Shown: piece by piece, positions 5,113 through 60,549 of the stretch
How the letters are laid out: each line of letters begins with the position of its first letter
How positions within the stretch are numbered: the first letter of the stretch is position 1
From: Callorhinchus milii
Taxonomy: Eukaryota
Length of the DNA stretch: 64,000 nucleotides
NCBI RefSeq assembly: GCF_018977255.1
Contig: NW_024704742.1
Coordinates: 38,132,001 to 38,196,000, forward strand
Direction: 5' to 3'
Position numbers and translations under genes: made by a program
Notes under the pieces: generated by a model
Told to the model about the DNA's origin: nothing
Seen by the model: the letters and a program-made list of their open reading frames with translations, nothing else
Databases searched by the model: none

Positions 5113-6569
5113 CTACTGAGACAGGATGTGAAATAATGAAAAAANTTGCATTTGATATAGCCCCTTTCACATCGGGAGGAAGTTTCAATGTGCTTCAAAG
5201 AATATACTGTAAAGTGTAACGACCATGTATTTTGTAATCTAAAGTAAGAAAAAAAACACATTTTTATAGTGCCTTATCCCATAAAACATCTCAAAGAGAT
5301 TCAACAATAATTTTTGTCAAGTGTAGTGATTGCCAGCAAGATTCCACGTGTGATTTGGTGGATTGTTGGTCAGGACCCAGGGAGAAACTCCCAACTCCCT
5401 TCTCTTTTCATTCGATCTGTAGAGGCAATTGGGAATTATTCTCTGTCTCATCTGAAAGTTGTCACCTCTGACATTGGAGAACTTCTCCGGTATTAAAGTA
5501 TTACAGTAGAGTGTCAGCCTAGACTGTGAGCACAAATGCTCATAGCATAGTCTATCAACACCATTATATAATTTATATCATACTAGTCACTACAGCAAGT
5601 TCTCCTTTTCCAAACAACAGTCAAAGGAAGAGCTTTCGGCAAAGGAACTTTACTTCCACGTCCAGTGTTTTATATGCAAGACTGTAACTTCCCTGTATCA
5701 GAGTGAAAAACATCCAATATTGTTAGCCCTTTATGTCACAATAAAAGCATGGGGAACCGCAATGAGGATGCCATCACACCTGCAGTTCTCCAGGTGGCCA
5801 TTTGTGTGCCAAACCATCATTCCTTCAGTCACTTCCAGACTCCACAGGACCATAAAGATTTACAGAAATAAAGAAGCAACTTAAGTGGAAATAAACAAAC
5901 GATCCTGAAAATTAATGGGACGCAGGGGTAAGCACTCTGAGACGCTACCCTGCATGGAGGGAGCTATATAAGTGCAAGTTGCTATTGTTGTAAAGAGAAA
6001 AGACCTGCTTCTGACCTGATCAAGTGATCACTACTAGAATGTGTACATGTGCACACAGGATGGGCCTGGGGTGTCTCTTCCCTCCCCCCTCCTCCACATG
6101 CACACAATTCAAGGGACGGCCAGCACTAATGGTCCTGTCTTACACACAAAGAATGGTCACTTGGGTAAGGAACCAGAGAGCGCTCAGGACCTTTGGAACC
6201 ACATGCCCATGCTTCCCGGAGAGATGGGGAAGGGTGGAAATTGGGAAATAAACATATCAATACAGAAAAAGAACTGTTCTCACTTTGAACAGAATTATCT
6301 TAACATAAAAGTCTGGGCTTGCTGTGTTTACACCTGAACCTTAATTGATAAGATATTCCAACCCCGCTGCTAAATTCAAGTCAAAAGTAAATATTTTTGG
6401 AGTGCATAACTTTAAAACACATAAATAACTTGCTGAAACAAATTCTGTGATTTATAGGAAGGGATGGCGTTGGATAGTCTTGAATGCAGCTTTAAACCTG
6501 AGCCGGGTTCTCAATTCTCAGATGGGCTGCAAAGCTATGAATTTTCAGTTATAATCATAATAAACCATG

Positions 6570-6783
6570 CCTTGATTTGAATAGCATCTTATCATTCCCT
6601 TTATGCATCTCACAACGCTTCACAGGATTTACAGTGTAGTGCAGTATCTCTATTTTATGGACTAATGTGGTAGCCAATTTGCACGGAACAATAGCCCACA
6701 AACAGTCATGAAGTGAATGACTAATTTATATTGGAAGGGGGGGATTTGTTGGCCAGGACACTGGGAGAAACTCCCTTTCTCTT
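6570..6783 (-). mobile_element. 5'-truncated Deu-domain SINE abutting the SOWAHB stop codon
   Basis: Minus strand reads aagagaaagggagtttctcccagtgtcctggccaacaa...ctgtttgtgggctattgttccgtgcaaattggctacc, matching other SINE copies in the window. Confidence 0.8.
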
Positions 6784-9700
6784 TCAGTCATCTTCCTCGT
6801 CCTCCTCCCTCACTGCACTGAAGTGGTCCGAGTGGAAGTGAGAGAACTTTCTCAGAATTGGTGGGGATTTGAAGAAAGCGGTGAAGGAGGTTTTCCTGCT
6901 CACAGCACGAGAGGGTTGGTGCCTGTTCCTGCCGGCATCAGTGATTGGCTCATTCATGGGGGCGCCCAACAGCTGGCACACATCTGGGGGGGTCTCAGTG
7001 CTCAGGTACTGCCAAGGCTTCTTGCCGCTGTGGTCCCTTAAGCTGACGTTGGCTCCAGATTTTTTTACCAGGTATTGGATAACTTTCACCTGTCCGTGGA
7101 TGGCAGCTAAATGCAGGGGGGTGTATCCGCACGTGGACTTCACATCCATGGACAATGCAACCTTACGTTTTCTAGCCGCACGGAAAAACGCGGAGAGCGC
7201 AGTGCGGTTACCGTGCTTTGCTATCCAGTGCCACACAGTGTACCCAGAAATAAAGTCCTTTTCCATGGCCAAGCTGGGGTTTTCAGTAAACAAGTTGAAT
7301 GCCTCTTTAAACATGCCGAGGGCCGTTTTTACCATCCACTCGTGCCCTTTGACAACAAGCGTGGAGTTTGGGGAGGTTTCCTTGCTCTTCGGCTCAGCCT
7401 CTTGGCTGGTCTGCCTATGGCGCTGTGCTAGAGATGCCAGGTTTGTGCCCACATGCACACACTGACTGCTTTCTACCCGATTCCCCACCGACCTGACCAC
7501 CCCCAGCGACTGCCCCTCCGCAACCCTCTCCCCTTCGTTGCCAACCCGACCGTCCCGCTTTTTGGACGACTTATTGTGCCAGTTGGGAAACCAGCCGTCC
7601 GCTGGCACGGGGGCGCTCCGGATGGAAGCCTTGGTGCGCTGGGACGGTTTTCTCTGACCTTTGGCAGCACAGACCGCCGTGGTGGCACCTGCCGCTTCCG
7701 AGACCCCCCAAGTGGGTGACCCTGGCGGTAACACCTCCGACCTGTCCCGAGTGCTGGGCGATTGACCAGGTGGCACGGGCGCCTCACGGTTGCTGGCAGT
7801 TTTGCGCCGCTGAGCAGCAGGAGCCGGGACGTGGCGAGGCGGCCTCTGGGCACCTGGTATTGCCTCCTCAGCCTGATCCCTGGAGGGCTGGCGGTGAGGC
7901 TGTGCGCCTTGACAGACAGGCTGGGCAGGCAGGTGACAGACAGGCTCGGCAGGCAGGTGACAGACAGGCCGGGCAGGCAGGTGACAGTCAGGCTGGCAGG
8001 TGACAGTCAGGCGGGCAGGCAGGTGACAGTCAGGCCGGGCAGGCAGGTGACAGAGGCCGGTGTAGACAGGTGACAGACAGGCTGGGCAGGCAGGTGATAG
8101 ACAGGCTGGGCAGGCAGGTGACGGTCAGGCTGGGCAGGCAGGTGACAGACAGGCCGGGCAGGCAGGTGACGGTCAGGCCGGGCAGGCAGTTGACGGTCAG
8201 GCTGGGCAGGCAGGTGACAGTCAGGCCGGGTAGACAGGTGACAGACAGGCTGGGCAGGCAGGTGATAGACAGGCTGGGCAGGCAGGTGACAGACAGGCTC
8301 GGCAGGCAGGTGACGGTCAGGCCGGGCAGGCAGGTGACGGTCAGGCTTGGCAGGCAGGTGACGGACAGGCTCGGCAGGCAGGTGACAGACAGGCTCGGCA
8401 GACAGGTGACAGTCAGGCTGGGCAGGCAGGTGACAGTCAGGCCGGGTAGACAGGTGACAGACAGGCTGGGCAGGCAGGTGATAGACAGGCTGGGCAGGCA
8501 GGTGACAGACAGGCTCGGCAGGCAGGTGACGGTCAGGCCGGGCAGGCAGGTGACGGTCAGGCTCGGCAGACAGGTGACAGACAGGCTGGGCAGGCAGGTG
8601 ACAGACAGGCTGGGCAGGCAGGTGACAGACAGGCCGGGCAGGCAGGTGACGGTCAGGCCGGGCAGGCAGTTGACGGTCAGGCCGGGCAGGCAGGTGACGG
8701 TCAGGCTCGGCAGGCAGGTGACAGTTAGGCCGGGCAGGCAGGTGATAGACAGGCTGGGCAGGCAGGTGAGAGTCAGGCTGGGCAGGCAGGTGAGAGTCAG
8801 GCCGGGCAGGCAGGTGATAGACAGGCCGGGCAGGCAGGTGATAGACAGGCTCGGCAGGCAGGTGACGGTCAGGCTCGGCAGGCAGGTGACAGTCAGGCCG
8901 GGCAGGCAGGTGACGGTCAGGCTCGGCAGGCAGGTGACAGACAGGCTCGGCAGGCAGGTGACAGACAGGCTGGGCAGGCAGGTGACAGTCAGGCTCGGCA
9001 GGCAGGTGACAGTCAGGCTGGGCAGGCAGGTGACAGTCAGGCTCGGCAGGCAGGTGACAGTCAGGCAGGTGACAGACAGGCTGGGCAGGCAGGTGACAGT
9101 CAGGCCGGGCAGGCAGGTGACGGTCAGGCTGGGCAGGCAGGTGACGGTCAGGCCGGGCAGGGTCAGGTGGACAGGTCAGGCCGGGCAGGCAGGTGACAGT
9201 CAGGCAGGTGACGGTCAGGCCGGGCAGGCAGGTGACAGTCAGGCTGGGCAGGCAGGTGACAGTCAGGCTGGGCAGGCAGGTGACAGTCAGGCAGGTGACA
9301 GTCAGGCTGGGCAGGCAGGTGACAGTCAGGCAGGTGACAGTCAGGCCGGGCAGGCAGGTGACGGTCAGGCCGGGCAGGCAGGTGACAGTCAGGCTGGTGC
9401 CCGGCAGTGGGCGCCGTGCAGCGCGCAGCAGGCGGCGCCTGGCCAGCGGGCGGGTGGTGAGGAGGGGCGCCGGGCGGGTCGGGCGAGGCGGTGGGCGGTG
9501 CCCGCGGGGCCCCGCGGTCCGGGCCGCCGCCTGAGGAACAGTTCGGGCCGACGGGACCGCCGCCCGCGGGGTCGCCGCTTTCCCGGGGGAGACGGGCGGG
9601 GCGGCGCGGCTCGGGCTGAGCGGGAGCCGAGGGTCCTCCGCCCACAGCCCCGCGGGGCTCCCCACCGCCACCCGCCCGCAGGGCAGGAGGGCCCCGGCCC

Positions 9701-10155
9701 CGGGCTCCCGGCCCCGCGGGGACCCCTCCCGGGGCCGCTGGCGAGGAGGGGCCGACCACCCCCGGGGCCGAGGAGCGGAGGGCCCTCAGCTCCCGTGGCC
9801 GCTGAACGACGGCTGCCCGACCGCGGGCCCTCCCGGCCCTGTGCCGCCCCGTCCCGGGTCTCCGCCGCCGCTCCCGGGCGGAGGGGGAGCGGGAGAGGGA
9901 GGAGGCGGGGGCGGGTATCTCCTCATGGAGCAGCTCCTGGTACCTCGCCTTCAGGACCACCAGTTTGACGCCGGCGACCTCCCGCACCACCGCCAGGGAG
10001 TTGACGAACCTCTTGAAGCGCTCCCGGTTCGGCAGCCGCCCCTCGGGCTGCCTCAGGAGGTGCCCGAAGTGCCCGGTCAGCTCCGCGTTCCTCACCCGCC
10101 CGCCGTGCAGCAGCAGGAAGTCCAGCACCGACTCCTCGCTCAGGGTCGCGGCCAT
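6784..10155 (-). CDS. SOWAHB: Sosondowah ankyrin repeat domain family member B-like, apparently single-exon; frame interrupted in this sequence by two compensating indel clusters inside an internal tandem repeat
   Basis: ATG at 10155 opens [34 protein letters not shown]...[29 protein letters not shown], the SOWAH N-terminal domain. The 6784..7776 ORF has HEWMVK...[17 protein letters not shown]...[16 protein letters not shown]...[12 protein letters not shown], the SOWAH ankyrin region. Both parts are in the same minus-strand frame (span 3372 nt, divisible by 3). Head-to-head position next to SEPTIN11 matches known SOWAHB synteny. Confidence 0.88.
7911..9397. repeat. 24-bp minisatellite (about 60 units plus a few 15-bp short units) inside the SOWAHB coding region
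   Basis: Plus-strand consensus caggcaggtgacagtcaggctggg. The minus strand translates as [24 protein letters not shown]. Confidence 0.97.
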
Positions 10156-10223: not shown

Positions 10224-11000
10224 CCTTTCCCTCTCCTCTTCCTCTCCTCCTTCCCTTCCCTCATCCCCTCTCCTCCCTCTTCTCCTTCCCTCCTCCTCTC
10301 CCTCCCGCCCTCCTCTCCTCCCTCTTCTCCTTCCCTCCTCCCCTCTCTCCTCTCCTCCTCCTTCCTTCCCTCCCTCCCTCCTCTCCCTCCCTCCCTCCCT
10401 CTCCCCTCTCCCCTCCTCCCTCCCTCCCTCCCTCTCCCTCTCCCTCCCTCTCCCTCTCCCCCCTCTCTCTCCCCTCCCCTCCCTCCCTCCCTCCTCCTCT
10501 CCCTCCCTCCTCCCTCTCCCCTCCTCCTCTCCCTCTTCTCCCTCCTCCTCCCCTCTCTCCCTCTCCTCCTCTCCTCCTTCCCTCCCTCCTCCTCCCTCCT
10601 CTCTCCTCTCCCCTCCCCTCTCCCCTCCTCCTCCCCTCCCCTCCCTCCCCCTCTCCCCTCCCTCCCTCTCCCTCTCCCCTCCCTCCTCCTCTCCTCTCCC
10701 CTCCCTCCTCCTCTCCTCTCCCCTCCCTCCTCCCCTCCCTCTTCTCCTTCCCTCCTATCCTTCCCTCATCCCCTCCCCTCTCTCCTCTCCTCCCCTCCTC
10801 CCTCCCTCCTCTCCTCCTCCTCCTCCCTCCTCCCTCCCTCTCTCCTCCCTCCCTCCTCCCTCCTCCTCTCCTCTCCCTCCTCCCCTCCTCTCCCCTCCTC
10901 TCCTCCCCTCCTCCTCCTCTCCTCTCCCCTCCCTCCTCCTCTCCTCTCCCTCCTTCTCCTCCTCCCCTCCTCCTCTCCCTCTTCTCCTTCCCTCCTCTCC
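10224..11000. repeat. ~780-bp homopyrimidine/homopurine low-complexity tract upstream of SOWAHB
   Basis: Almost exclusively C/T on the plus strand (cct, ctc, ccct units) with only a handful of purines. Confidence 0.95.
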
Positions 11001-18273: not shown

Positions 18274-18408
18274 TCAGATGGGGTTGCTTTCCCCCAAATG
18301 AAACTACATTTCCGAACAGTGCTTTTTACTGCAAAGCAAAGTCCTTGTATAAATACCCACAATCATGCAATAAACCATCAGCACAGAGATAATACAAACA
18401 TCTGTTTA

Positions 18409-19500
18409 CCCCCCCCCCCCTCCCCCCCCCAGCCCCACCCCCAGCCCCACCCCCAGCCCCAGCCCCTCCCCCACCCCCAGCCCCTCCCCCCAGCCCCTCC
18501 CCCACCCCACCCCCCCACCCCCAGCCCCTCCCCCCACCCCCACCCCCAGCCCCTCCCCCCAGCCCCACCCCAGCCCCACCCCCCAGCCCCACCCCCCAGC
18601 CCCACCCCCAGCCCCCCCCCAGCCCCAGCCCCTCCCCACCCCACCCCCCAACCCCAGCCCCTCCCCCCCAGCCCCCCCCCAGCCCCCCCCCCACCCCACC
18701 CCCCCAGCCCCCCAGCCCCAGCCCCTCCCCCCCAGCCCCTCCCCCCCACCCCAGCCCCTCCCCCACCCCCAGCCCCTCCCCACCCCCAGCCCCTCCCCCA
18801 CCCCCAGCCCCTCCCCCCAGCCCCTCCCCCCACCCCAGCCCCTCCCCCCACCCCCAGCCCTCCCCCACCCCAGCCCCTCCCCCAGCCCTTCCCCCCAGCC
18901 CCAGCCCCTCCCCCCAGCCCCAGCCCCTCCCCCCCAGCCCCAGTCCCCTCCCCCCACCCCAGCCCCTCCCCCCCAGACCCTCCCCCAGCCCCTCCCCCCA
19001 GCCCCTCCCCACCCCCAGCCCCTCCCCACCCCCCAACCCCTCCCCCCCCCCCCCACCCCCAGCCCCCCAGCCCCAGCCCCTCCCCCCAGCTCCAGCCCCT
19101 CCCCCCCAGCCCCCCACCCCTCTCCCCAGCCCCTCCCCCCACCCCAGCCCCCTCCACCCCCTCCCCCCCAGCCCAGCCCCCTCCCCCAGCCCCTCCCCCC
19201 ACCCCCAGCCCCCACCCCTCCCCCCAGCCCCCCCCCCACCCCAGCCCCCCTCCACCCCCCCCCCCAGCCCCAGCCCCTCCCCCCCAGCCCCTCCCCCACC
19301 CCCAGCCCCCCACCCCTCCCCCCAGCCCCTCCCCCCCCCCAGCCCCCTCCACCCCCTCCCCCCCAGCCCCAGCCCCAGCCCCTCTCCCCCAGCCCCTCCC
19401 CCACCCCAGCCCCCCACCCCTCTCCCCAGCCCCTCCCCCCACCCACCCCCAGCGCCCCCCCAGCCCCAGCCCCTCCCCCCAGCCCCTCCCCCCAGCCCCA
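18409..19500. repeat. ~1.1-kb C-rich degenerate tandem tract (G-rich on minus) upstream of SEPTIN11 exon 1
   Basis: Repeated cccagcccctccccc / cccaccc units, nearly CpG-free. Confidence 0.95.
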
Positions 19501-19650
19501 GGGAGAGAGAGATGCCATATTGCCGGAGTGCAGAGCGAGGAGAGAGGTTGTAGCAGAGCTCACCTCCCGGGGACCAGCAGCAGCCACACACCCTCCTCTC
19601 TCCCACACACACACACACACAGTACCACTGAGCCACAGCTCCACACAGTG

Positions 19651-43000: not shown

Positions 43001-44959
43001 TAAAGCCTTGAGACGGATGGCCTGTCAATGTGATACCTAATATAAATATTATTATATGGCTTGGGCTGCAATAATAATTTCTTCACCAAAGGTTTAATAA
43101 ATTGGTTACTCAATCCACGACTGTCTGTGGAGAAACTGCTGTGCGCAATCGGCTGCCACATTTCGCCCACAAAATATACAGTCAGTTCACTTTACAGTAT
43201 ATTCTGTGAAGCGATTTGAGACGTCTCGAAGATGTTATAAGGTGCTATATCAAATGCAAGGATTATTATTAATATTGTTTGGGTAACAGATCATAACACA
43301 CTCAAAAGGTGTTTCAAGTATGCAAGGATGTTTTCGTCGCAATACTTGCCCAATGGCACTGAGGTGTTGACCCATGTGCGGAAGTCCGCAGACAATGGAA
43401 GGCAGCGGTGGCTTGGAATTGCGGTTGCGTCTTTACTTTGGCACCGGATCTGGAATCCCCAGAGCTCCAGTGCTAAAATGGGATGAAAGAGGCGAGGAGG
43501 AGGGAAATGGTTGTGAGTGAGACTTCTGCAAATCACTTTGCAAAAAAAGAATAAATGCTACTGGGCCACTGCTGAGCGTAATTCTCCCTCGGGAATGTCA
43601 AACTGAAAGGCTGTGCAAAAGAAGTTGATTTTTTGCTTATATCTCCTGACGATGCAATTGGCAGGAGAGGATCTGAAGAGTAGCATTGTGCAAGAGATGT
43701 ACAGTACATACCTTGTATGTAATTCCCTTGCTCTTTATTAACAAAGAGGGTTCTTGTGGGTGAGCCATAATACATTTTGAGACTCAGGGCATCAATTGGT
43801 GAAATATGACCTTAGCTTAATTGTGGAATTTGTGTTGTATAAATAAGTGTTATAACAAAATGGATAACGTGAGCTGCATTCTGCCGAGCAACCAAATTAT
43901 TGTTAGCGAGCACGACCTCAATGTTTTTCTTAAACTTAATCATTTAATAATGATCCATCTGGGCAGGTGTGTGACCCCCAAGGTGGCCAACCTGCGGCCC
44001 GTAGGCTGAAAGTGACCTGGATAGCCTTCAAGAAGCAGCTGCCCGAACATTTGCACGAGTCTAGGTAGATCTACATTTGATCAGCAGTGTGTTTTCATTT
44101 TTTTCTTGATTGAATATTTCTTGATTTATGCCATAAATTAAGACATATTCAATCAAAATGTTATTTTGTTGACCAGCCATAAATGTTGGTTACCACTGTT
44201 CAGTAGAACAGAAATAACGCCTGGATATTAGTACAATGTTTTCACTTGTAGGCTATTTGTCTGCTGCTATCTCTGACATCAGAGGTGGTGCTCCAATCTT
44301 AACTGAAGTGATGCTCATTTTGCCTTCCAGAGTTTGTTTGTCCATCTCCTCAGGTCTTCAGCCCCCTCCTGAAGACAACAGCAACAACATATTATATTTG
44401 TATAGTGCCTTTCACGTCAGGAGGACCAAGTGCCTGGTGCAGGAAGGACCTTATGGAACCTCTGTAGCTGCCAAGTTTTCTTACTGGGGTTTGGCACAAG
44501 CATTTGGACCAGCGGTGAAGTTGGGGGAGGAGCAGGAGGAAAGCTTCCTGGAGGGAAAGTTGTAATTTAGAAACTCTTTAAATACGTTTCCATGGGCACA
44601 GGATTGTGTTGCCATTACTGCCTGTAATTCCATTAATGGATTATGAAGTAGTGTTAGGATGTACACTCTGAGTACATTGGCTCAATGCAGAATTTGCCAA
44701 TTTGCATTAGACTGCCAGGTTGGTAGTGGAGGGTGGGTGGGGTGGGGGAGTGATCAGACTTTTACAATATTATGAAACAAAATTTTTAAGAACAAAATAA
44801 ATGTTGGGAACCAGGACGGAAAGGTATTTGGTTCAACAAGATTCCTCTGTTCCCTCACTGTCAGAAATGTTTCACTTCCATTTACAAGTATAGTACAGAT
44901 ATTTTTTGAAAGTAGAAGATTGTTGAAATGCTTCAAGTGACGTACCGTGTATCTGAAAT

Positions 44960-47732
44960 TCAGAAAGATGCAAAGCCAATAGAGTAGTGATAATGGGGGA
45001 TTTCAATTATCCTAACATTGACTGGGAAAATAACAGCGTAAATGCCAAGGAGGGGGAAGGATTCATGAAATGTATGCAGGATAACTTTCTGGATCATTAT
45101 GTTTACAGCCCAACGAGGAAGAAAACAGTGCTGGATCTAGTTCTGGGGAATGAAGTAGGGCAAGTAAAGCAAATTTCAGTAGAAGAGCATCTGGACAACA
45201 GTAATCACAACATCATTAGGTTTAGAATACTTACGGAAAGGGACAAGGAGCAATTAAAGGTGAAGATACTCAACTGGAAGAGAGCTAATTTCAGTGAGTT
45301 AAAAAGGACCGAGCCAAAGGGGACTAGAAAGAAAGATTGGCAGGTAAAACAGCTAATGAGCAATGGGAAGCCTTCAAGGAGGAGATAATAATAATAATCC
45401 TTGCATTTGATATAGCGCTTTTCATGTCGGGAGGACGTCCCAAAGTGCTTCACAGAACACACTGTAAAGTGAATTGACTGTATATTTGTGGGCGAACTCG
45501 GCAGCCAATTGCGCACAGCAATGTCCCACAAACAGTCGTAGATTGAAAATAACCAATTTAATTATGGTTTTTGGAGGGATTATTATTAGGCTCTGTGTGG
45601 AGTAAGGAAACTTGCCCAAGGTTTCGCCCTCTGCCTGGAATTGAACTCAGGTCTCTCGCTTGCAAAGCGAGTGCTCTAACCACTGAGCTACAGGACTCCA
45701 GGTAGTTCGGGAATAGAACAAAAACGTTCCCACAAAGGGGAAAGGTAGGGCATCCAAACCTCCCTGGATGAGTAAGGAAATTGGGATTAAAATAAAACAG
45801 AGAAAGGAGGTTTATGATAAAGGTCAGGTCCAAAATACAGAAGGTAATCAAATAGAATATAGAAAGTAGCAAGGAAAACTGAAAAAGGAAATAATAGGGA
45901 CAAAGAGATTGAACGAGAAAAGATTAGCTGGTAACATAAAAGAGAACCCTAAGATATTTTATAAGCATATAAAGAATAAAAGGTTAGTCAAAGGTAGGGT
46001 CCAATTAAGGACCAAAGAGGAAATCTTCTTGTGGAGGCAGAGGACATGGCTGACGTATTGAATGAGTACTTTGTATCTGTCTTCACAAAAGAAGCGGATG
46101 CAGCCAATACCACAGTATCGGAGGAGAAAGTAGAGAAATTGGATAAGCTAAGAATAAACCGAGAGGAGGTACTAAAAAGGTTATCGGTGCTCATGGTAGA
46201 TAAGTCACCTGGTCCAGACTGGATGCATCCTTAGGTTACTGAGAGAAGTAAGGGTTGAAATAACGGAGGCTCTGGACACAATCTTTCAATCCTCCTTGGA
46301 CACCAGGGTGGTGCCAGAAGACTGGAGGGTTGGAAATGTTTCTCCCCTGTACAAAAAGGAGTAGAAGGATAAACCCGGGAACTACAGGCCAGTCAGCCTA
46401 ACATCAGTAGCGGGGAAACTTCGAAGAGACTATAATTCGTGACAAAATAAATTTTCACTTAGAAAAATATGGGTTAATAAAGGACAGCCAACACGGATTT
46501 GTTAAAGGCAAATCATGTCTAACAAACCTGATAAGAGTTTTTTAATGAAGCAACGGAGAGAGTGGATGAAGGCAGTGCAGTTGATGTAGTTTATATGGAT
46601 TTTCAAAATGTGTTTGATAAAGTGCCACATAAGGGTCTTGTAAGCAAAATAGAAGCCCATGGTATTAAAGGGACAGTGGCAGCATGGATACAGAACCGGC
46701 TGGAGACACGAAGCAGAGAGTGGTGGTCAACGGTTGTTTTTCTGATTGGAGGGAAGTGTGCAGTGGTCTCCCCCAGGGGGCGGTATTGGGATTACTGCTG
46801 TTTTTGATCTATATAAATGACTGGACTTGGGTATAGGGAGTACAATTTCCAAGTTTGCAGATGATACTAAGCTAGGAAAACTGGAAAACAGTGAGGAGGA
46901 TAGTAGCAGACTGCAAACAGATGTAGACAGACTGGTAGAATGGGCAGAAACTTGGCAGATGAAGTTTAATGTGGAGAAATGCAAAGTGATGCATTTTAGG
47001 AAGAGAGGCTATGTAAGCTAGATGGTACAATTTTAAAGGGGGTGAAGGAACAGAGAGACCTGGGGGTTCATATAAGTAAATCTTTGAAGGTGGCAGAAAA
47101 CGTAGTTAAAGCTGTTAAAAAAAGCATACAGTTTGCTAGGCTTTATAAATAGGGGCATAGAATACAAAGTCAGGAAGTTATGATGAACCGTTATAAAATA
47201 CTGGTTAAGCCTCAGCGAGAGTACTGTGTTCAGTTCTGGGCCCCACACTTTAGGAAGGAGGCATTGGAGAGGGTGCAAAGGAGATTTACCAGGACGGTAC
47301 CAGTAATGAGGGTCTTCAGTTATCAGGAGAGGCTAGAGTAGCCAGGATTATTCTCCTTGGAGCAGAGAAGGTTAAGAGGAGACTTAATAGAAGTTTTCAA
47401 AATTATGAGGGGATTTGATAGGGTAAACAAGGAGAAACTATTTCCACCAATTTAAAATAGTTGTTAAAAGAAATAGAGGGGAGATGAGGAGACTTTTTTT
47501 TACACAGCGAGTTGTTGGGATCTGGAATGCATTGCCTGAAAAGGTGATTCGATAACAGCTTTTAAGAGAGAGGTAGATAATTATTTGGGGAGGACAAGTT
47601 TGCAGGGCTATGGGGAGAGAGCGGGGGAGTGAGACTGATTTGGAAGCTCTTTTCAAAGAGCGGCACAGACATGATGGGCCAAATGGCCTCCTTCTGTGCT
47701 GTATAATTTTGTGATTCTTGATTCTATGATTC
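44960..47732 (+). mobile_element. Large degenerate CR1 LINE (endonuclease end, RT and 3' tail), interrupted by a SINE
   Basis: IMGDFNYPNIDW, VLDLVL, DKSPGPD, VDVVYMDFQ.FDKVPH and ISKFADDTKLG in several frames; tail ...gattctatgatt. Confidence 0.95.
45385..45699 (-). mobile_element. Young tRNA(Ala)-headed SINE nested in the CR1
   Basis: Near-identical reverse complement of 16628-16940. Confidence 0.93.
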
Positions 47733-48756: not shown

Positions 48757-50624
48757 GACACCTGAGCCATTCTGTTCATGGCTCGGCTATTCCCTGAATA
48801 AAGTTGGGTCTTTATAAAACTATGTGCTTTATTACGCAGCAATTCTGTAATTCAGGCGAGGACTTTATTCCAATAACAGAAATATCTCGAGCTGGCTTCG
48901 AGGAACTCTGCTCCCAAAGTAGATTATGTTAGAAAGGAGTTTCCTGAGGCTTTCTGTTACCTGTATCTTGGTTTCCTTGTTTAGTAATCTAATAGTAATC
49001 TTCCTTTTTTTCGTAATAATTTTAGTTAATGATTCATATTAAATCCTTGCATTTGATACAGTGCCTTTTATTTACTTTGCCTTAAAGCACTTCACAGGGT
49101 TTATTGTGAAGTGACTGTATATTTTTTAGGTGAATACGGCAGTTGATTTTCACATAGTAATGTCCTGCATACAGCCAGTACGTGAATGACCAATTCCTTG
49201 GCCAGGAAACACTCCCTTTGTTTTTCAAATAGTGCCAGGAGATCTTTAGTCAGGCAGACAGGATCTTGTTTTAATATCCGAAGGATGGTGCCTCCAACAA
49301 CGCAGTGCACCCACAGCACCGCATTGCAACAACAACAAAATGACACTTATATAGCGAAGGTGACTCCGAGGTGACAAAATGAGCATCAGTCACATAAGCG
49401 ATCCAAGTTTCTAAAATCCCTGTTTCACACTGTATCCTGCTGCTGTGGTAAGACGCAAGTCTCGTGTAATTTCAGTGTGGTGGGAGACATTGTGGAAAGG
49501 TGTAATGTGAAAAATAAATCTTCTGATTAGAGATTGAATTTCTCAGAATCTGGTCCCATTCCTGGCCTATGTGGAATCATCAGATAATCGACTCTCACTA
49601 CGGAGAATGTGAAATAATCCACCTGGCTGAGAGGGAGAGCACGAGATTTAAACAGTCAGTGATGGTATCCGTTTCTGAACTCTACTGATGGTGTAGTGAG
49701 TAAAGACACCAGAAAGTCATAAGTATAATTCCCAGTTGTTAATTGCCACTTGAGCTAAGTGTTAAACTAAAACCAAACCACGAGGATTATTCCATGGTGA
49801 TTCCCATAGGCAGCAGCTGGATTGCTGCAATTGTCCTCAGCAGCTCAGTTAGGGAGCAGGAAAATTAATATAGGTTCCCACTCTTGATCTCTATCCAAAG
49901 ATCCCTGCTGGAAGACGGGGAGGATGAGATACTGCTTCAATTGTCGCACTTCCCTCTCCCCCCACAATACTCGCTATTGAAGCTGAACATCCACTTGGGT
50001 AAGGTATTACAGGGTGATAGAGTACAAGAGCAAAAGTACCAGTGGAAGAGGAGAGAGGTGATAAGAAAAATCCCGCTCTGCCCCTTTTCTGTTTTCCTTT
50101 GATGCCCACGCCCTCTCCTCAACAGTAAGTGCTTGCCCCACACGTCAAGGGTTGTCTGCAAGCCACTCATAGCCATGTATTTGATACCAAAGTGTTCCAT
50201 TAGGAGGGCGCATCACTGTGTAAAGTGATTGTCGTGCTGCAGTTATTGCAGGAAAAAACAATCTTGGAGGAACAGTGCAGGTTTTGGATTAATAATTTGT
50301 CTTTAACTTTTTCTACTTGAGTCAGAAATATATGATGAGAGTGCCTGGGGTGGTTTGGGATGTTGTAACTTAATGCTTGGATCAACTCTGTGTTTAGCAG
50401 AAGTGTGTGTGCACATACTATTATATGACCACTAAAAGCCTTGGATTCTGTAAACTTCAATTATAGATCTAGACGGAGAGACATCTGCAGGTAAGTCAGA
50501 CCTCTCGGGTATGGAACCTATTTCCGACTGGAAGGGATCAATTGCTTTTCATTTTGCTCTCCCAGAACTAAGAGAATTAGATGTATAAAACACAAATTTA
50601 AAAAAATTTCCTTTGTTTTTAAAG

Positions 50625-50820
50625 GTGAAACTGGTATTGGTAAATCGACATTAATGGACACGTTATTCAATACTAAGTTTGAAAACGAGCAGGCATCTCA
50701 CAACGAACCAGGCGTTCGGTTAAAATCGCACAGCTACGAGCTACAGGAAAGCAATGTTCGTCTAAAGCTCACTATCGTAGATACAGTGGGGTTTGGCGAC
50801 CAGATTAACAAGGAAGATAG
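50625..50820 (+). CDS. SEPTIN11: Septin-11 exon 3 (P-loop GETGIGKST ... [13 protein letters not shown])
   Basis: aag acceptor, gtgagt donor, 196 nt; G1 and G3 GTPase motifs; phase-compatible with both neighbours. Confidence 0.96.
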
Positions 50821-52948
50821 GTGAGTGTTTACATTTGAATGATCATCCAATATACAGTGACTAGAATGAAGAGACTACTTTCCTTTAAAAGATCAAGGAT
50901 GTGTTCTTTTAATGCTCATTAAGGTAAGGGATGTTAGCACTGGGGAACAGAACACTCCCCCATTTTGGACACTCCATGTTAGCATCCAGCTGTTCCCAGA
51001 TCTGGTTCACTAGTTGTCTGATCCAGATGTTGTGAACCAAATTGAAGAGAATATTAATCCAGAGTAGTTTGTGGAATTGTGCTCAGGTACACCTGTGGTT
51101 CATGGGTGTCAGCATCCCTCCTTAGTGGTTACGATCTTACTCTCGTTCACCAAATAGCAAACAGTTGCCATCGCTGCAATGTATAGGGATCCATGACCAT
51201 CTTTGTCTTTCCCCATCCCAACCTGGAAGCACTTGTGCTTGGCTGAGATTAATAAACTCAGCATGGACAAGGGATTGCACATGGAATATTGTGGGTCTGC
51301 TTGGCTCAACGCTACACTGAGGCAATCTCACCATGAACGCTTGCAGTGGGCAGGTGATCAGCACCGGGAGAATTTATGCTGAGCAGACAGGCAGGAGTAC
51401 TTACTGTGGACAGTGTGAAAGAAACTATGGTTGTACAGTTTAATGAGATGTGCTCTGTAGCCAAGAACATGCAGACTTCTTTTTAAGTAAATTTGACCTT
51501 TAGGAAAGGGAACTTGGTTCATTGAACTCCCGACCTAGTCTTTGCTTAGGAGACGGGCAGTCTACCATTTGAAACCAAGTCATCAGAGTTAATAGGATCG
51601 ATTATTTCAAATAACATCACATGATAAAAGATCAATGTTGGGTGTGAGCCTAATGTAGTCAGGCACCGTCTTGCTGCAAAATAATTTATCCATAGCTGCT
51701 GAAGTAAGGATCAATATATATATATTTTTTTAAATCCTGTAAAATGAATAGAAAAGTTGGTTTGAATAATTGCCTCAAATGTGACCATTTGTCTTGTTAT
51801 GACAGATGCTTCCTCCTCTGAAAATGATGGGTAGAGACTAAACAAAGCTGCAGAAATAATAATCCTTGCATTTGATAGCACTTCACAGAATATACTGTAA
51901 AGTGAATTGACTATATTTTGTGGGAGAAATTGTTCACTTAAGAAAGTTGTAAAAATAGCCTGGCAGCTAAGTCTCCTTTCTGCTATGATGTGGTCACATT
52001 GATCAGTGGGTACGTGACATGCCATGAAATTAACAAAGCTTCCCCTCTCCCAGTGAAGCATTAGGGCCATACAGGAAAGATTTAGGGTTTGAATCCACGT
52101 CTATGCTGAGTTAACTGATCAAAGCTGTGGTAGCAGGTGGTGTGTGACAAGATTTAATCTGAAGGCTTTCAGGAAATTTTTAAAGTTTTTTTTTAACCTG
52201 TGCCCACAATTCACATCAGCATAATTTGAACTAGGTCCTGCTTCAGGTGATGCCCTTTCTGCAAAGGGCCACCTTTACCACGATCTGCCTAATTTAGTCA
52301 AGGGAAGTATTGACATCTTGACATGGGTATTAGCCACACAAAATATTTATCAACAGAGATAGATTTAATTTTAAAAAGCTAGAAATAATACACAAACACA
52401 AAATAACAAAGAAATAAACAGTCCTTGAAAGGAATTCCATATAGAACGTAGAAAGAAGTCTTTGATGGCACAACACAGTACATCAACCAAGCACTTGCAT
52501 TGACTTGGAAGAGCTACCCCCTTTCCAACTAACAGTCACCAGTCGACTAAAGACAAATGTGAGTGAGAGTCGCTTCTTGAATCTGTAAATCTGGATCTCT
52601 TTGACCTTTAATCGCAGATAGAGTATAGAACAGGCATTGTTCCTAATCAAGTCACTGAGAACGAGAAGACAATCTTGCTTATTCTCAAGTGATGGTAATT
52701 CTTCAGTTTGTGTTCATTTTGGTTGGCATGGTCCATAGCCAGACATCTAGTTGAAAACAAAATCAGAAAACAACTTTGTAAATGGTCATGACGATGAACG
52801 TATTTTGAATAACAAGAGGAAAAAAATTGATCTTAAATACCATTTCTTACCTAAAATACCTAATGCCAGCCAGCCTGTGTTTAAAATTAATTGTTTTTCC
52901 AAGTTTGTCCAATAATGTTTCTAATCTGCTTTGTACTTCCCATTCCAG

Positions 52949-53135
52949 TTACAAGCCTATAGTTGAATACATTGATGCACAGTTTGAAGCCTATCTACAG
53001 GAAGAATTGAAAATCAAGCGTTCCCTCTACAATTACCACGACACCAGAATTCATACCTGCCTGTACTTCATTGCACCCACAGGACACTCGCTGAAATCTC
53101 TTGATCTTGTTACCATGAAAAANCTGGATAGCAAG
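52949..53135 (+). CDS. SEPTIN11: Septin-11 exon 4 ([26 protein letters not shown]...MKXLDSK)
   Basis: cag/gtaac boundaries, 187 nt; ambiguous base at 53123 in a Lys-like codon (AAN). Confidence 0.96.
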
Positions 53136-55188
53136 GTAACCAACTTATTTTATCAACCATAACATTATCACAGCACCATATAAAATAGTGATCAATTCTT
53201 AACAAACGTAAAGGTTACTGTGAGTTTCTGAAGGAATCAGTTATAACGCTCTTTAATTCTCCTTTAATACTGCCATGTTACGCTTGGCTGCAGAGCAGTC
53301 AATAAGCCTTGTAAATGCCTCGGTTCTCAAAGGATCACTAAAATAACTTTTCAGGTGTTCCTTCAGGTTTTTAATTCGAAAAGTTGCTTCAATTACTGTG
53401 TGGAAAATCAATAATCCAAGTCAATTCTTGCTGGTATTTTTATGAGCACGTCTTGTTTGTTTCAAAGAATCAGAGTTAAGCTTACCTAACAGTTTACTTG
53501 ATATACTCAGCAATGCATACCCAGATTGTGTTTACCTGGTCAGTGCTTCCTGAGTTGTTGTTTGAATGGGATTGGTTTTAGCTGTAATCCTTTCTACCAC
53601 CTCACCCCTGCAGTGATTAGTTGCTGCAACTCACTGTCTAGACTTGTTTATAAAGAGTAGTCATTTAGAGGAGTTAATGGAAGTGGTAGCATCCTCAGCG
53701 CCTTGGGACGTCCTCCCTATGTGAAAGGCCCTATACAAATGTAATTTTGTTGTTGTTGTAGTGCTGATGAGCCTGCACCCAAATGTGAATTTATCAGAGA
53801 AGTGAGTTTCTCCAAGAGTCCTGGCCAGCCATCTCCCAGATAAAATTGGCCAAACTTCATGCCTGTTTGCCAGACCCAACAGTGCGCTAATTGGTTGTCA
53901 CGTTCACCTAGAAATCCACACTCGCTACATTTTAGTGAAGTGCTTCAGACTGCCTCCCAGTGTGAAAGACACTATTATTAAATGCAGGGATCATTTATAT
54001 ATTATTAGAAAATGGGGCGACCATTATACTTGCTAACTGTGCTACTGAAAATCCATCCTAAATTATTTTTACTTTTACATAAAAGGAAACTACCAGCAGT
54101 TGGTTATATACAGTATAAGCTTTATGCTGCTGGGACTGGTCTTGATGGTCTGCTTACGCTACATATATGGTTTGGTGCCAAACCTCTTTCTTGATATAGC
54201 TTTCCTTGCAACAACACAGTGACATTGTTTAATTTTCAAACACAATTGTCAGGTCTCAGCTTTGGACTTCTTCATAATTTACAATGGTAGAAATCTGAAA
54301 GAAAATGACATCCTTGATATACCCAACAGATCGATCAATTGTTGAATATTTTCCAGCGTTCATTCTAGTTCTGTTAAAGTGCTGCAGCCGAAATGGTAAC
54401 CTTAAGAGAAGTTCCAAGGATTCTGAATAATGTGATGATTATTAATTTCCTGTTAAAAATACGATTCTGGAATGACATTCCTGTATTTCCTCTTGTTTCC
54501 TTGGAGGAGGTGCTGGAGAGGATGCAGATACCAGTGCTTCCTGCTGTAGCTGCTCAAAGGGAAATGACCAATGGTTTGACTGAGAAATGATGACTGGGTT
54601 TTGCCTGCAGGGTTTACCTGTTTGTTTGTTTGTTTAGACCATTGTTCTGTTCCAAATGAGAGACTACTTCCTAGAAACCCAGAAGCTATAGTTTAATTTG
54701 GATATTTGTGAATCGTTCTTTCGAGCTGAGAGGGTGTTCAGTGGATGTGTTAGAGTCCAGATAGAACGTCAGTGCAGTTAAATATTTGATAGTTAAATCT
54801 TTCACCCCATGTTTTTAGGAAACACGGCGGTGATAGTTACAATTGTTAAATAGCATCAAAAGTGTTGAACACTTGCATTACAAAAAATGAGCTTGTCAAT
54901 GCTGGCTTGGCTGCAATGTTTTGGATGTGGAGTCTCACTGCACTTTAGAGTATGTCCTGTGAAGATCTTTGGAATGTCCTCCCAACATGAAAGGCAATAC
55001 CACACCAAATGTAAGAGGTATTATTATGTTTGTGAACATTAATGGCACTTGAGGTAATTCTGAAGTCTCATCTACTCGAAAACCCAAATGCCTCAGGTTC
55101 AATGCGCTGTCTAAGGTGGTACCCTCATCTTTAGGTTAGAAGTTTGTGGAATCGAGCTCTAGTTGGGACTTCAGTTTATATTCTAAGC

Positions 55189-55435
55189 CAGTGGCCTCCA
55201 ACCTGTCAATCGCCACTAGGTGGTACTGTCATGCATGATCAAAAAGACAAAAGGAAGGAGCGAGAGTTATGTGAGTCCAATTAAAAACTAAGCCAGGTGT
55301 AGGAAATACTTTGTGCATCTTGAAATAAAAATATAAACTTTAATGTTAAATAGCAGTACATATCGCTCCTGCCTCTTTGTTTTTATTGAGCATACACGAG
55401 ACGCCACCTAGTGGTGATGGACTGGTTGGAGACTG
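55189..55435. mobile_element. hAT-type MITE with long inverted termini, nested in a SINE
   Basis: Left ctccaacctgtcaatcgccactaggtgg versus reverse-complemented right ctccaaccagtccatcaccactaggtgg (25/28 identical). The 8-bp flanks ttctaagc / gtcgaggc both resemble the host SINE site gtctaggc. Confidence 0.75.
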
Positions 55436-56197
55436 GTCGAGGCTGACACTTCAGTGCCGTGTCGGGGAGCACTGCATTTTCAGAGGTGTCATACGTCACA
55501 TGAGCTATCTATCTGCCTGTTCTTTGTGTGGGTGTCAAGGTTCTGCAACTCTCCTTCAAAAAAGTGAAGGAAGCCATGCAGCAGTTAAGCCACCAGAACA
55601 CTGTTCGCATTAGTCCAATAGCTCTAATGGTCTTAGCTTTATTACCATTTGTCTTCAAATTAAAATGCTGCCTTAATTTGAATTCAGTCTTAATTTAGGA
55701 GGCAGTAATGTCTTTGTAATGTGGAAATCTGTCTTCCAATTTAAGACATTTCCAACATTCTTTACAATCTTGAATGTTATGACTTGAGTCATCATTTCCA
55801 TCAGTAATTGCTTCTTACTTTCATAAGGCTAAGACTGTGAGGAATTTGGAGTCTCTGGAACCTTATCTAAGTGGCTCAGTGTTGCGCCAGATTGTGCATG
55901 AGCTATGGGGGTAGTCGGAAGGTAACGGCCTCAATTCATTTCCTTGAGCAGAGTATCGCTGATGTCCTCCAGGATCTCTGTTAAAACCACAGTAACTTTA
56001 ACTTGTGTTACACAGATTAACATCAATAGAAAATACAAATCTTGATTTTGAACCAGGTTCCAATGCTTCTCTGCAATTGTGTATATATTTGTAAAGAATT
56101 GACTTGTGAAGGGTTCTCCAGTATTCAGGTATTAGAATGTCTTAGGTACAAATAAAGCAAAGGTGTGAAGCCATGGCTTGCGGGTTGTGTTTTCCAG

Positions 56198-56359
56198 GTG
56201 AATATAATTCCCATTATTGCCAAAGCAGACACGATCTCCAAGAGCGAGCTGCATAAGTTCAAGATCAAAATCATGAGCGAGTTGGTCAGTAATGGTGTGC
56301 AGATTTACCAGTTCCCAACAGATGACGAAACTGTTGCAGAGATCAACTCAACAATGAAT
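56198..56359 (+). CDS. SEPTIN11: Septin-11 exon 5 ([12 protein letters not shown]...EINSTMN)
   Basis: cag/gtaagt boundaries, 162 nt; G4 motif AKAD. Confidence 0.96.
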
Positions 56360-56840
56360 GTAAGTCCCGATTCCTGATTTAATAGATTTTGTCATTTACA
56401 TGGGTTTAAAAGAATGCTACATTTCAGCATTTCATTTGAAATTAAGGGCATTGTACATAAGTTTTCTCCTTATTACATGCGTATCTCTTCCAATTCCTCC
56501 CCAACAGTTCTGTGATATCATTGTGAAATTTGTGTGCTCTATAAATCCTGTTCGTGTTTTTTATTTTTTCCCCCACACCCTGGTAGTGATTAACAGCAAC
56601 TTGCACCTCCTAGAGTCGCGCTACTGCGCGCTGCCTTTCATGCAGCTTAGCACTGTCCAATATTCTTTTACATCCTGAATGGACAACATATACTCACTCC
56701 CGCTCCTATGTACAAAAAGGACATTCTACTTAAAATTATCCTGTTTAATGAAGACCACAGTTAAGTATTGCTACCTTTCAGCCTGCAGCGACTGAGTAAC
56801 AGACTTGAGAACAACTTGTATTCTTTTTCTTGCTCTCCAG

Positions 56841-56937
56841 GGACATCTCCCATTTGCTGTTGTTGGAAGCACTGAAGAAATCAAGATTGGGAATAAAATG
56901 GCAAAAGCTCGGCAATATCCCTGGGGAATTGTGCAAG
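56841..56937 (+). CDS. SEPTIN11: Septin-11 exon 6 ([32 protein letters not shown])
   Basis: cag/gtatgt boundaries, 97 nt; [10 protein letters not shown] matches SEPT11 as recalled. Confidence 0.96.
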
Positions 56938-57867
56938 GTATGTCTGACTTGCAAGATGTACCTTTTATCTTACCTTTCAGATCTTAAGTGTGCTCAATAG
57001 TGTAAGAAGTTAGAAAACTTCTAAACCGATTTTCTTTGGACCTGTCTAGAAACTAAACAGTGTATTGTAAAATTTAGGGAAGGGCATCTTCCCCCATTCT
57101 TGCCCCACTCTGCTGCTCCTTATCCCGCAGCAGATAAAATTTACCCTTACCATCAAATGCCTCCATGGTCTCGGCTGTTAATACAATTGATATATTTGAC
57201 AATAATTACCTGTGAACCACTTTGAAACAGTTCAGTGCCTTTTCACATGCAAGCATTGTAATTATAATAAACGGTCTAAACAAGTTCATTTGCTGCAAAA
57301 TAATCACCATATAGTATATCCTGTAAAATGTTTTTGAGACGCTTTTCCGATGTGAAAGGCACTGTATCAAATACATGGTTATTTTTATTTTAACGTTGGG
57401 ATACGTTTATTACTTTATTAGTGGTAGTTAATAACGTACTATATAAATGCTAGAGAGGAGCTTATAGAGGTATAAGATTCTAAATGGGATAGAGAAATTT
57501 GATGCAGAACAAAACTTTCAGATATACCAAGGCAGCAGGACAAGGTTCACAGGTTGAGGGTTGTGAAGAACAATTTTAGGGTAAGACACCAGAAGTATAT
57601 TTTTACATAGTTTGATTATGACAATTATGCTCCTCACTCTTTCCCTGGCTTCATGGACTGTGCTGCTCAGGTTACATCCTTTCACAGATTAGGAGCATTA
57701 CCCAAAGGTGCCTCTTTCCCTGTCAATGATGAGATTTATTGCCATTTCAAAAGATGTGAAGAAATGCCTTCCTTTGAACTTCATGAACTGAAAAGTGTTT
57801 CTGCCAAAACAACTGTTTATTTCAGTTCTTTGTTTCCTTTTTTTTTAAAAAAAACCCACACTAATAG

Positions 57868-58036
57868 TGGAAAATGAAAATCACTGCGATTTTGTGAAAT
57901 TGCGAGAAATGCTGATCCGAGTGAATATGGAGGACCTGAGGGAGCAGACACACACACGCCACTACGAGCTATACAGACGGTGTAAGCTGGAGGAGATGGG
58001 ATTCAAGGACACCGACCCCGACAGCAAACCTTTTAG
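57868..58036 (+). CDS. SEPTIN11: Septin-11 exon 7 ([55 protein letters not shown])
   Basis: tag/gtaac boundaries, 169 nt; septin unique element. Not in the supplied ORF track; translated by hand. Confidence 0.95.
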
Positions 58037-59892
58037 GTAACAACTTTGGAGATTTGGCTTTGTGGAGCCAAGATAACTCGGGTTCTAAGTCACCCTGACT
58101 ACACCAAAGCCAAAGGTGTCAAGTCACCCCAGGGTGCACAACTGGCTGCAGAGTTTCTCTCACAAACTATATAATCAATCCACTTTACAAGATATTTTGT
58201 GAACCGTTTTGAGATGTTCTTAATGATGTGATAAGGTGCTAAATCAAATGCAAGTATTATTATTATTATTCTATAGACAATTGGCCAAATAAAGAATTGG
58301 TAGAAAGATCCCTAGAGATGCATTGTGCAGTTTCAGGGTTTATACAGATCAATTCAGATTTTTAAAAAAACGTAATATAGGTTATGTGCTAGTGGTTGAG
58401 GTCTTAATTACTGTGGTTTTTAAATTTCATTTCTGATGAACATTTTCTCCAATATGGCTCAGTGGTTGCTTTCTTAATCTTAGACAGACGCAGTGAGATT
58501 GAGCAGTATCCCTGGAGAAATTGGGTGCATGGGGGGGAGGCATGGGGAAGAGAGCATGAAAATTGGCTAGGCATTTGCTCGCTGCAAAGGGTCTATGCAC
58601 TTATTCACTTATGAGAACATGATTGAGCTTGGTTCCGATTTGTTTCAGTGACATTTGAAGCTTTCCATCCCACGCTTTCAAGACTCTGTTATTATAATAA
58701 TAATAATAATAATCCTTGCATTTGATATAGGATATCACATCTTGGAGACATCTCAAGAGCTCTGGGATGCCGCTTCTGCATGAGAGGCACTATATATATG
58801 CAAGGTGTTGTTTCAAAGGGCTTCATAGAATATACTGCAAAGTGAATTGACTGTATATTTTGTAATCTCACATGTGATGAAGACCGTTGTGCGGGGTCTG
58901 TAGGTGCTTCAGGAGTCCATGCCCCAAAACAATTACACTTTCAAAGAAGATACTTTGAGTTTAGTCTAGAGACTGACGTTTCACTGCGTTGTGGAAGGTG
59001 CCATCCTTCAGATGAAATGTTAGATCCAGGTCTTGTCTGCCTGGTCAGATGAACGTTATAAATCCCATGACACTATTCCCAAAAAGAGGAATTCCTCCCA
59101 GTGTCCTGGCTAACAACCTCCAGATGGATTGGTCGTTGAGTTTGCAGCTGTTTGTGGGACATTGCTATGTGCAAATTAGTTGCTGCTTTTTTCTACAAAT
59201 AGTCACCAGACTCGACAGAGATTCTTTGTGAACTGCTTTGACACTATTCAACATTCCAGGCATTACTTTGAATGTTTTTTTTGAAGGTGTAGTTGATTTG
59301 GGACATGGACTTCTGAAGCCTACAGTACCCTGCACAGGGGTCATCAACTACACTTGAGAGTCTTGAAAGCATTGTATCTAATGCCAGGATAATTATGGGA
59401 AGAAGAACGAAACAAATTGGCAGATGGAAAGATTGCTTGGAAAACTATATGGAAACCTAATGGTGTCTAATTTAGTGTGTAAAGAGTTAAAATCCTGTGC
59501 ATGCAAACCTCTATCAATGAGTATATTTCAGAATTGTTTTTGTTACTTTAGATCTTGAAACATCTATACATAAAATATGGGTTATCACATGGTAATGGAG
59601 GCTCAAGTGGTGCAAAAATTACAATACACATTTACATTTATATAGTGCCTTTCATGTTGGGAAGCCTGTCTAAGGCGCTGGACAGTTTAAGGTTTGCAGC
59701 CAAGCTGGGGTGGGAGCCAAGGGGAGGGGGGAAAGATTGTCATAGAGGAAGATCTTATTTTAAAATTTGAATTTGAAGTGAGAACACAAGTCAAGTCTTG
59801 CTCTTTGTTTCCAGGGCTGGAGGAGGCTACTTTCACAGTGTTGCACAGAAATGCAAACCAGACTCTGTTTTTATCCTGTATTTGTTTTTCAG

Positions 59893-60074: not shown

Positions 60075-60549
60075 CAGGGTGGTCCAACCTTTTTAGCTAC
60101 TGACAACAAAAAAAATTACACTTGTACAGCGCCTTATGGGTGGAGGCGCGGAGGGATGTTGGGGGCAGCAGAGGGGGGTGCGGAGGGTGGAGGAGACCAT
60201 GGGTGGGGGTGGGGGGCAGGGGGTGGAGGAGGGCAGGGGGTGGAGGAGGGCAGGGGGTGGAGGAGGGCAGGGGGTGGAGGAGGGCAGGGGGTGGAGGAGG
60301 GCAGGGGGTGGAGGAGGGCAGGGGGTGGAGGAGGGCAGGGGGTGGAGGAGGGCAGGGGGTGGAGGAGGGCAGGGGGTGGAGGAGGGCAGGGGGTGGAGGA
60401 GGGCAGGGGGTGGAGGAGGGCAGGGGGTGGAGGAGGGCCGGATGCCCCATTTGAGAAACGACTGCGGTCCCCATAAGCAATATTTTGGTGTTTTCCTTCT
60501 AGAAACGGCAGATGAAATTGGCCCGTGGGCCGCCAGTTGAACCACCATG
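60075..60549. mobile_element. hAT/Charlie-like MITE
   Basis: Termini cagggtggtccaac / gttgaaccaccatg (12/14 inverted match); subterminal ggcccgtgggccgcca motif. Confidence 0.6.
60216..60437. repeat. 17-bp G-rich minisatellite, 13 copies
   Basis: Perfect unit gcagggggtggaggagg at 17-nt period. Confidence 0.97.

Follow-up and report, generated by a model that had tools for sequence, protein, structure and literature searches.

The SOWAHB gene of the elephant shark, Callorhinchus milii, contains a 24-bp minisatellite of about 60 copies in the stretch that links its two conserved end domains. We assign a probability of about 0.6 to the reading in which a unit of 3n length was amplified in a linker of free length, under selection on the frame only, and encodes a disordered spacer, the five frame-breaking units of the assembled array being consensus errors. 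The window, to which all positions below refer, is the whole stretch analyzed, 64,000 nt of the Callorhinchus milii assembly.

Tandem Repeats Finder reported 61.6 copies of a 24-bp unit at 7910-9397, with 85% matches. Our parse of the minisatellite (7911..9397, − strand) resolved 63 units—54 of 24 nt, four of 15 nt, two of 26 nt, two of 23 nt, and one of 19 nt—which bears out the roughly 60 copies counted in an earlier note made from the sequence alone. A degenerate pattern for the unit matched 55 times in the window, every time within the array, and 0 times in 100 shuffles. At each edge of the array the gene frame is in the HLPA register, as the earlier note had described in the form P[DV][CRY]HLPA[QRE], and the repeat peptide in that register is HLPA[QRE]P[DV][CRYS]. 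Fifty-eight of the 63 units are 24 or 15 nt long, both multiples of 3; the claim that unit lengths are multiples of 3 therefore holds for these recurrent lengths but had overlooked five units (26, 26, 23, 23, and 19 nt). The array comprises 21 different 24-nt units and 611 unique 31-mers out of 1458, and the first non-unique 31-mer begins at 7910. It also has higher-order structure at 8217-8576, where the five-unit block at units 37-41 is repeated at units 46-50, and its 15-nt units are confined to units 3-15.

Homologue matches, an ankyrin-region tree, and a Septin-11 neighbor uphold the earlier assignment of the host gene to SOWAHB. The 375 aa downstream of the array gave SOWAHB proteins as their best matches, headed by those of sharks and rays (lowest E 1.3e-71). 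An independent database model from Callorhinchus milii, the UniRef record P0121, matched a 399-aa query at 100% over 93% of its length; it starts two codons after the array edge and lacks an initial Met. In the tree (30 rows, 145 columns), the window's SOWAH fell in a 9-row chondrichthyan clade (100/99) within a 16-row B clade (99/98), grouping with B and not with the A, C, or D paralogues, on a branch longer than those of the sharks (0.49). Full-length records were sought as well: none from the elephant shark appeared among the best 120 of 275 matches of 658-2000 aa, and the 330-aa N-terminal open reading frame used as query returned no match.

The coding span runs on the − strand from an ATG at 10155 to a stop at 6784 (6784..10155; 3372 nt, a multiple of 3) and is interrupted by the five non-3n units. 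An HMM of 120 homologue N-termini recognized the N-terminal SOWAH domain in residues 1-90 (9886..10155, − strand; E 4.7e-31), a domain named in homologue records as PF25877, winged helix-turn-helix; the same part compared with Pfam matched no family. A Pro/Gly/Arg-rich N-terminal linker follows (9398..9885, − strand), and the N-flank as a whole (9398-10155) is 79% G+C. Beyond the array lies the C-terminal half of the linker (7345..7910, − strand), whose alignment to the elasmobranch linker starts at the array edge. The ankyrin-repeat region comes next, at residues 190-323 of the C-terminal 375 aa (6943..7344, − strand; Pfam Ank E 7.6e-10, own HMM E 1.3e-64). The array thus sits between N-terminal domain and ankyrin repeats, where it had been reported. 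Near-invariant columns are retained at 21 of 24 positions in the N-terminal domain and 47 of 48 in the ankyrin region, all 375 codons downstream of the array are open, and the ankyrin part is free of stops and frameshifts both in the window and in P0121.

The SOWAHB coding region appears to be a single exon, because both flanks are continuous open reading frames and Logan contigs of 2.1-3.6 kb contain skate SOWAHB in its entirety. Retrogene copies of Sowah are described for tetrapods in the excerpts of PMC5803294, and by analogy a retrogene origin might be carried over to chimaeras. At 7231-7233 (− strand), in the first ankyrin motif, the window encodes Trp where at least 95% of 120 homologues have Leu; P0121 has Trp there too, so the change is not an assembly error. 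Together with the long ankyrin branch, this Leu-to-Trp change could reflect relaxed constraint.

Comparison with orthologues places the array's origin in one lineage. Seventeen elasmobranch SOWAHB proteins measure 651-734 aa, the window's flanks without the array total 640 aa, and the array is absent from all 17, in agreement with the earlier claim of lineage specificity, for which an orthologue alignment had been proposed and was run here. More than one HLPA-type motif was found in none of 177 SOWAH homologues. Since the orthologues lack the array, it was added in the lineage leading to C. milii; among holocephalans, protein searches returned P0121 alone. The predicted length of about 1120 aa exceeds that of the longest of 120 listed homologues (966 aa).

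Other repeats have arisen in the same poorly conserved linker, likewise with Pro-rich units and copy numbers that vary by species. Our own scan gave a tandem-repeat score of at least 10 in 11 of the 177 homologues. Four carpet sharks carry a 9-aa Cys-Pro repeat at residues 105-160, behind the N-terminal domain, in 6, 3, 6, and 1 copies (P0007, P0008, P0010, and P0012, respectively), and two Chiloscyllium species differ in copy number (3 versus 6). Further SOWAHB linker repeats have units of 23 aa in chinchilla, 11 aa in axolotl, and 10 aa in tammar wallaby. These units are unrelated to the elephant shark unit, the carpet shark repeat lies at a different place from the elephant shark array (near residue 255), and the longest of the other repeats spans 117 aa against ~490 aa in the elephant shark, which puts the latter at four times the length of any other repeat identified in the SOWAH family. 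Derivation of the unit from an ancestral linker motif was considered and found unsupported, as shuffles did as well against a linker HMM in 130 of 1000 cases; in a global alignment of the array-collapsed protein, the unit lay over shark residues of the PNC...QPV type, a site at which it matched best in only 3 of 12 orthologues.

As assembled, no uninterrupted frame leads from the SOWAHB N-terminal domain to the ankyrins. Units 10 and 11, of 26 nt each (+2 nt), form a 5′ patch of breaks (9144..9195, − strand) that is the source of the first in-frame stop, at 9163-9165 (codon 331), after 330 aa. The middle block that follows (8073..9143, − strand) is clean, with 45 units, 357 codons, and no indel, but in the assembly it is out of the ATG register and reads in a PACPA* frame with 25 stops. 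A 3′ patch (7984..8072, − strand) then restores the register through units 57 (23 nt), 59 (23 nt), and 60 (19 nt). With the stop at codon 331 and 27 internal stops in all, this assembly holds no 1120-aa open reading frame, and the continuous repeat of ~500 aa proposed in the earlier note could not be confirmed.

Several properties of the breaks bear on their origin. Relative to the nearest perfect unit, the five break units require seven separate small indels, and each of them occurs once. They cluster in the two patches (P = 0.007, for a statistic picked after inspection of the data), and intact copies of the unit seen damaged in unit 57 stand at positions 41 and 50, preceded by the same two units. 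Their offsets total −3, which has a 1-in-3 chance and lends support to nothing. The earlier note had also pointed out that no substitution creates a stop. This is true of the recurrent substitutions, yet the absence is uninformative because nonsense makes up only 2.8% of the possible single changes to the unit and three of the six frames of the middle block are open.

Read literally, the assembly specifies a truncated SOWAHB of 330 aa—the N-terminal domain, the linker, ten units, and no ankyrins—in which at least the 5′ frameshifts would be real and the locus a null allele or a young pseudogene created by an unstable array. Real frameshifts in coding VNTRs do occur, with MUC1, CEL, and MUC21 named in the excerpts of PMC10338300. 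The longer ankyrin branch and the Leu-to-Trp change would also suit a decaying gene, as would the nine coding differences between the window and four sequencing runs at 7044-7818, of which six are non-synonymous, although none is a stop and seven lie in the linker. We nevertheless regard truncation as unlikely: The five break units are private, derive from one haplotype, and sit in two patches, none falls among the 45 middle units, where substitutions are spread, and the ankyrin part is intact in both the window and P0121.

Comparison with sequencing runs supplies a further argument against truncation. We compared run contigs with the window over 5300-8030 for four of 24 runs listed (X1, X5, X7, and X8, from three studies). 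In unique DNA, within a run of C behind 6083, all four runs from the three studies carry an extra C, leaving the window one base short, and three long contigs starting near 6757 show a second gap (about 6757-6848). Both differences are probably assembly indels in unique DNA; deletions in G/C homopolymers are described as a typical long-read error in the portion of PMC8574707 consulted. One X5 contig has five extra letters behind 7994 that would turn unit 60 into a normal 24-mer, and X1, X7, and X8 lack them. We downgraded this as a direct repair of unit 60, the signal not being site-specific: Simulated interior fragments of the array reproduced it in 7 of 332 cases at 70 bases, 15 of 329 at 80, and 120 of 322 at 100, with 0 at 55 and 60. 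The frame breaks are probably assembly errors, judged from a run comparison that spanned 5300-8030 only, because they fall in two patches of private units, a base is missing from unique DNA relative to 4/4 runs, the end domains are conserved, and contigs cross the array edge. Between assembly error and real disruption of the frame, error is favored at about 4 to 1.

The run contigs also bear on whether the array is present in RNA. Three of the runs (X5, X7, and X8) are RNA by a tool's guess, and X5 and X7 come from one study. Unique-contig depth over 6864-7415 was 84 in X5, 68 in X7, and 16 in X8, against 5.2 in X1. A single 409-base X5 contig (7545-7953) aligned with all its letters and reached 42 bases past the array edge at 7911, and an X7 contig (7602-7939) with no loose end reached 28 bases past it; X8 did not bridge the edge, which is thus crossed in two of the three runs guessed to be RNA. 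Full alignment of the X5 and X7 contigs across 7911 argues against a main splice acceptor there. At 7947, the pile-up of array-like contigs reached 211 in X1, 463 in X5, 209 in X7, and 44 in X8, compared with 3.7-8 for unique contigs in X1 and with 36 in X5 and 23.5 in X7 beside the pile-up; this is a hint of many units in independent samples and gives no copy number.

These observations also weigh on the idea that mature mRNA lacks the array, removed as a new intron, or that the assembly greatly overstates the length of the array, so that the protein would measure 650-730 aa. Such a protein would accord with the flanks, whose total without the array is close to the elasmobranch lengths, and with P0121, which starts just past the array edge; the 3′ end of the array is moreover pyrimidine-rich and followed by AG. 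Against it stand the X5 and X7 contigs that cross the edge and the array-like pile-up in all four runs. The many unique 31-mers and different 24-nt units are unlike simple over-expansion, and the nearest donor-like sites, at 9665-9759, lie ~270 or more bases upstream of the 5′ edge, none with a full GTRAG. We therefore consider loss or gross shortening of the array improbable. A single-exon mRNA would escape nonsense-mediated decay and persist despite an early stop, so expression is no proof of an intact frame.

The composition of the units speaks to what a translated repeat might do. Among the 54 full units we counted 11 distinct substitutions, of which 0 were synonymous in the gene frame compared with 23.6% of possible changes (P = 0.052). 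This test of synonymous substitution has low power, and within that power the expectation without selection is the same 23.6%; the outcome points away from purifying selection on the repeat peptide. His1 is present in 52 of the 54 full units, and Leu2 and Pro6 are invariant. Position 8, among the most variable, is Cys in 30 units, Arg in 16, Tyr in 6, and Ser in 2; Cys directly precedes His at the end of 34 of the 58 in-phase units. The description of the repeat as Cys/His-rich in the earlier note accordingly fits His, but Cys occurs in only 30 of 54. Pro accounts for 24% of the 357-aa middle block.

Two other frames were considered as possible targets of selection and rejected. TCLPSLTV and the antisense TVRLGRQV each show 6 of 11 substitutions as synonymous, but with P values of 0.085 and 0.069; neither array edge lies in either frame, and unit 58 would add a stop in a mixed path.

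A more demanding proposal is that the array is translated and selected as a His/Cys polymer for metal or heme binding, redox sensing, or lipidation. The near-constant His1, the invariant Leu2 and Pro6, and the frequent Cys-His junctions invite it, as does the unrelated Cys-Pro repeat that carpet sharks gained in this linker. Invariant positions are, however, expected of any young homogenized array, all 11 substitutions are non-synonymous, and 24 of 54 units have Arg, Tyr, or Ser in place of Cys. CP, CxxC, CxxCH, HxH, and HxxxH are metal or heme ligand motifs, and the 357-aa middle block contains 0 of each. The repeat matched no Pfam family, and in a search of 1.84 billion proteins its 568 matches were led by unrelated repeats of period 8 or 16, with a SOWAH domain in 0 of the 150 matches listed. 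For 197 aa of repeat, AlphaFold predicted no secondary structure (pLDDT 50.6, pTM 0.13), a weak result from a single sequence; the ESM Atlas gave low recognition (795), a bacterial cluster as best match (0.92), and no lead.

Selection for such a chemical role seems very improbable on these grounds, and the metal, heme, redox, or palmitoylation function suggested in the earlier note finds no support, given the lack of synonymous substitutions, the variable Cys, and the lack of CP, CxxC, and CxxCH. In its most elaborate form, which we rate as a long shot, holocephalan SOWAHB would be a translated protein whose ~490-residue His/Cys/Pro polymer acts as a metal binder or redox sensor and adjusts the spacing of N-terminal domain and ankyrins, the carpet shark Cys-Pro 9-mer being a second, convergent gain. 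A tolerated disordered spacer fits the observations better than a metal or heme module.

Under the preferred reading of a tolerated coding spacer, a 24-bp segment of the unconstrained linker of single-exon SOWAHB would have expanded in the elephant shark lineage into ~60 head-to-tail copies, presumably by the usual minisatellite processes of slippage, unequal exchange, and conversion. The array would be kept in the mRNA and translated in the HLPA register into a protein of ~1120 aa, in which an intact N-terminal domain and intact ankyrins flank a Pro/Leu/His-rich, probably disordered spacer of ~490 aa. Selection would maintain the frame and not the residues, leaving the repeat as a putatively neutral, tolerated spacer. 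The five break units would be consensus errors in a repeat of a kind that short reads cannot polish.

By unit structure—3n units inside a coding region, as judged from sequence—the array would be a member of the protein-coding VNTR class. The excerpts of bioRxiv 10.1101/2021.01.19.427332 list coding VNTRs in the human genes ACAN, MUC1, TCHH, TENT5A, and LPA, among them an ACAN repeat of 13-44 copies of 19 aa. As described there, these VNTRs share with the SOWAHB array an exonic position, a unit of 3n bases, the addition of hundreds of residues, and poor resolution by short reads. They differ in being conserved domains, whereas the SOWAHB array is missing from every orthologue examined, is known from one assembly, and is not known to carry a modification or to play a structural part. 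The model for a truncated SOWAHB is the MUC1 VNTR in ADTKD-MUC1, a G+C-rich coding array in which an indel within a single unit leads to loss of the C-terminal domain (PMC10338300, in excerpt). The MUC1 cases in that source involve one recurrent indel and an open shifted frame; SOWAHB has five private break units and a stop within two codons of unit 11.

SOWAHB (ANKRD56) belongs to the sosondowah family, and the elephant shark gene shares the family's N-terminal SOWAH domain, ankyrins, conserved C-terminal tail, and septin 11 neighbor; it differs in its 1.5-kb linker array and predicted ~1120 aa. Titles and abstract openings of the SOWAHB/sosondowah literature, a set that covers few subscription papers, contained nothing on a linker repeat in the elephant shark, and the portions of PMC8255886, PMC12311624, and PMC8302217 consulted describe neither a SOWAH linker repeat nor a molecular function for one.

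Coding minisatellites are a well-known class and the literature surveyed gives no established molecular function of SOWAHB, which limits what is gained more widely. If translation of the array does occur, a conserved vertebrate protein has nearly doubled in one lineage and the SOWAHB linker tolerates ~490 extra residues; from such tolerance it would follow that the end domains probably work independently of their spacing. Translation would also explain why the only elephant shark SOWAHB record found is a fragment. The array is a candidate polymorphic marker, and a caution attaches to this assembly, in which arrays can carry frame errors.

The neighborhood within the window matches the identification of the gene as SOWAHB. 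Five septin exons (50495..58037, + strand) lie divergent to SOWAHB; they were found among 300 of the 309 filtered open reading frames outside SOWAHB, and in both of two exons tested the best solved-structure match was Septin-11. We take SOWAHB to be linked to septin 11 in the human genome as well. An old interspersed repeat at 6551-6786, presumably SINE-like, has several copies of 69-82% in the window and very high contig depth, and it ends at the SOWAHB stop. A 760-base low-complexity tract of C and T only (10236-11000) starts ~80 bases ahead of the SOWAHB start codon, presumably within the promoter or 5′ UTR, and a 1.1-kb C-rich tandem tract (18408-19501) lies between SOWAHB and the septin exons. 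A second minisatellite, G-rich and of 17 bp, occupies 60185-60438; its ~15 copies include 12 that are identical and lack indels, and its unit length is not divisible by 3. Fragments of a non-LTR retroelement occur at 44957-47018 (+ strand), with endonuclease (E 3.2e-11) and reverse-transcriptase matches in separate open reading frames.
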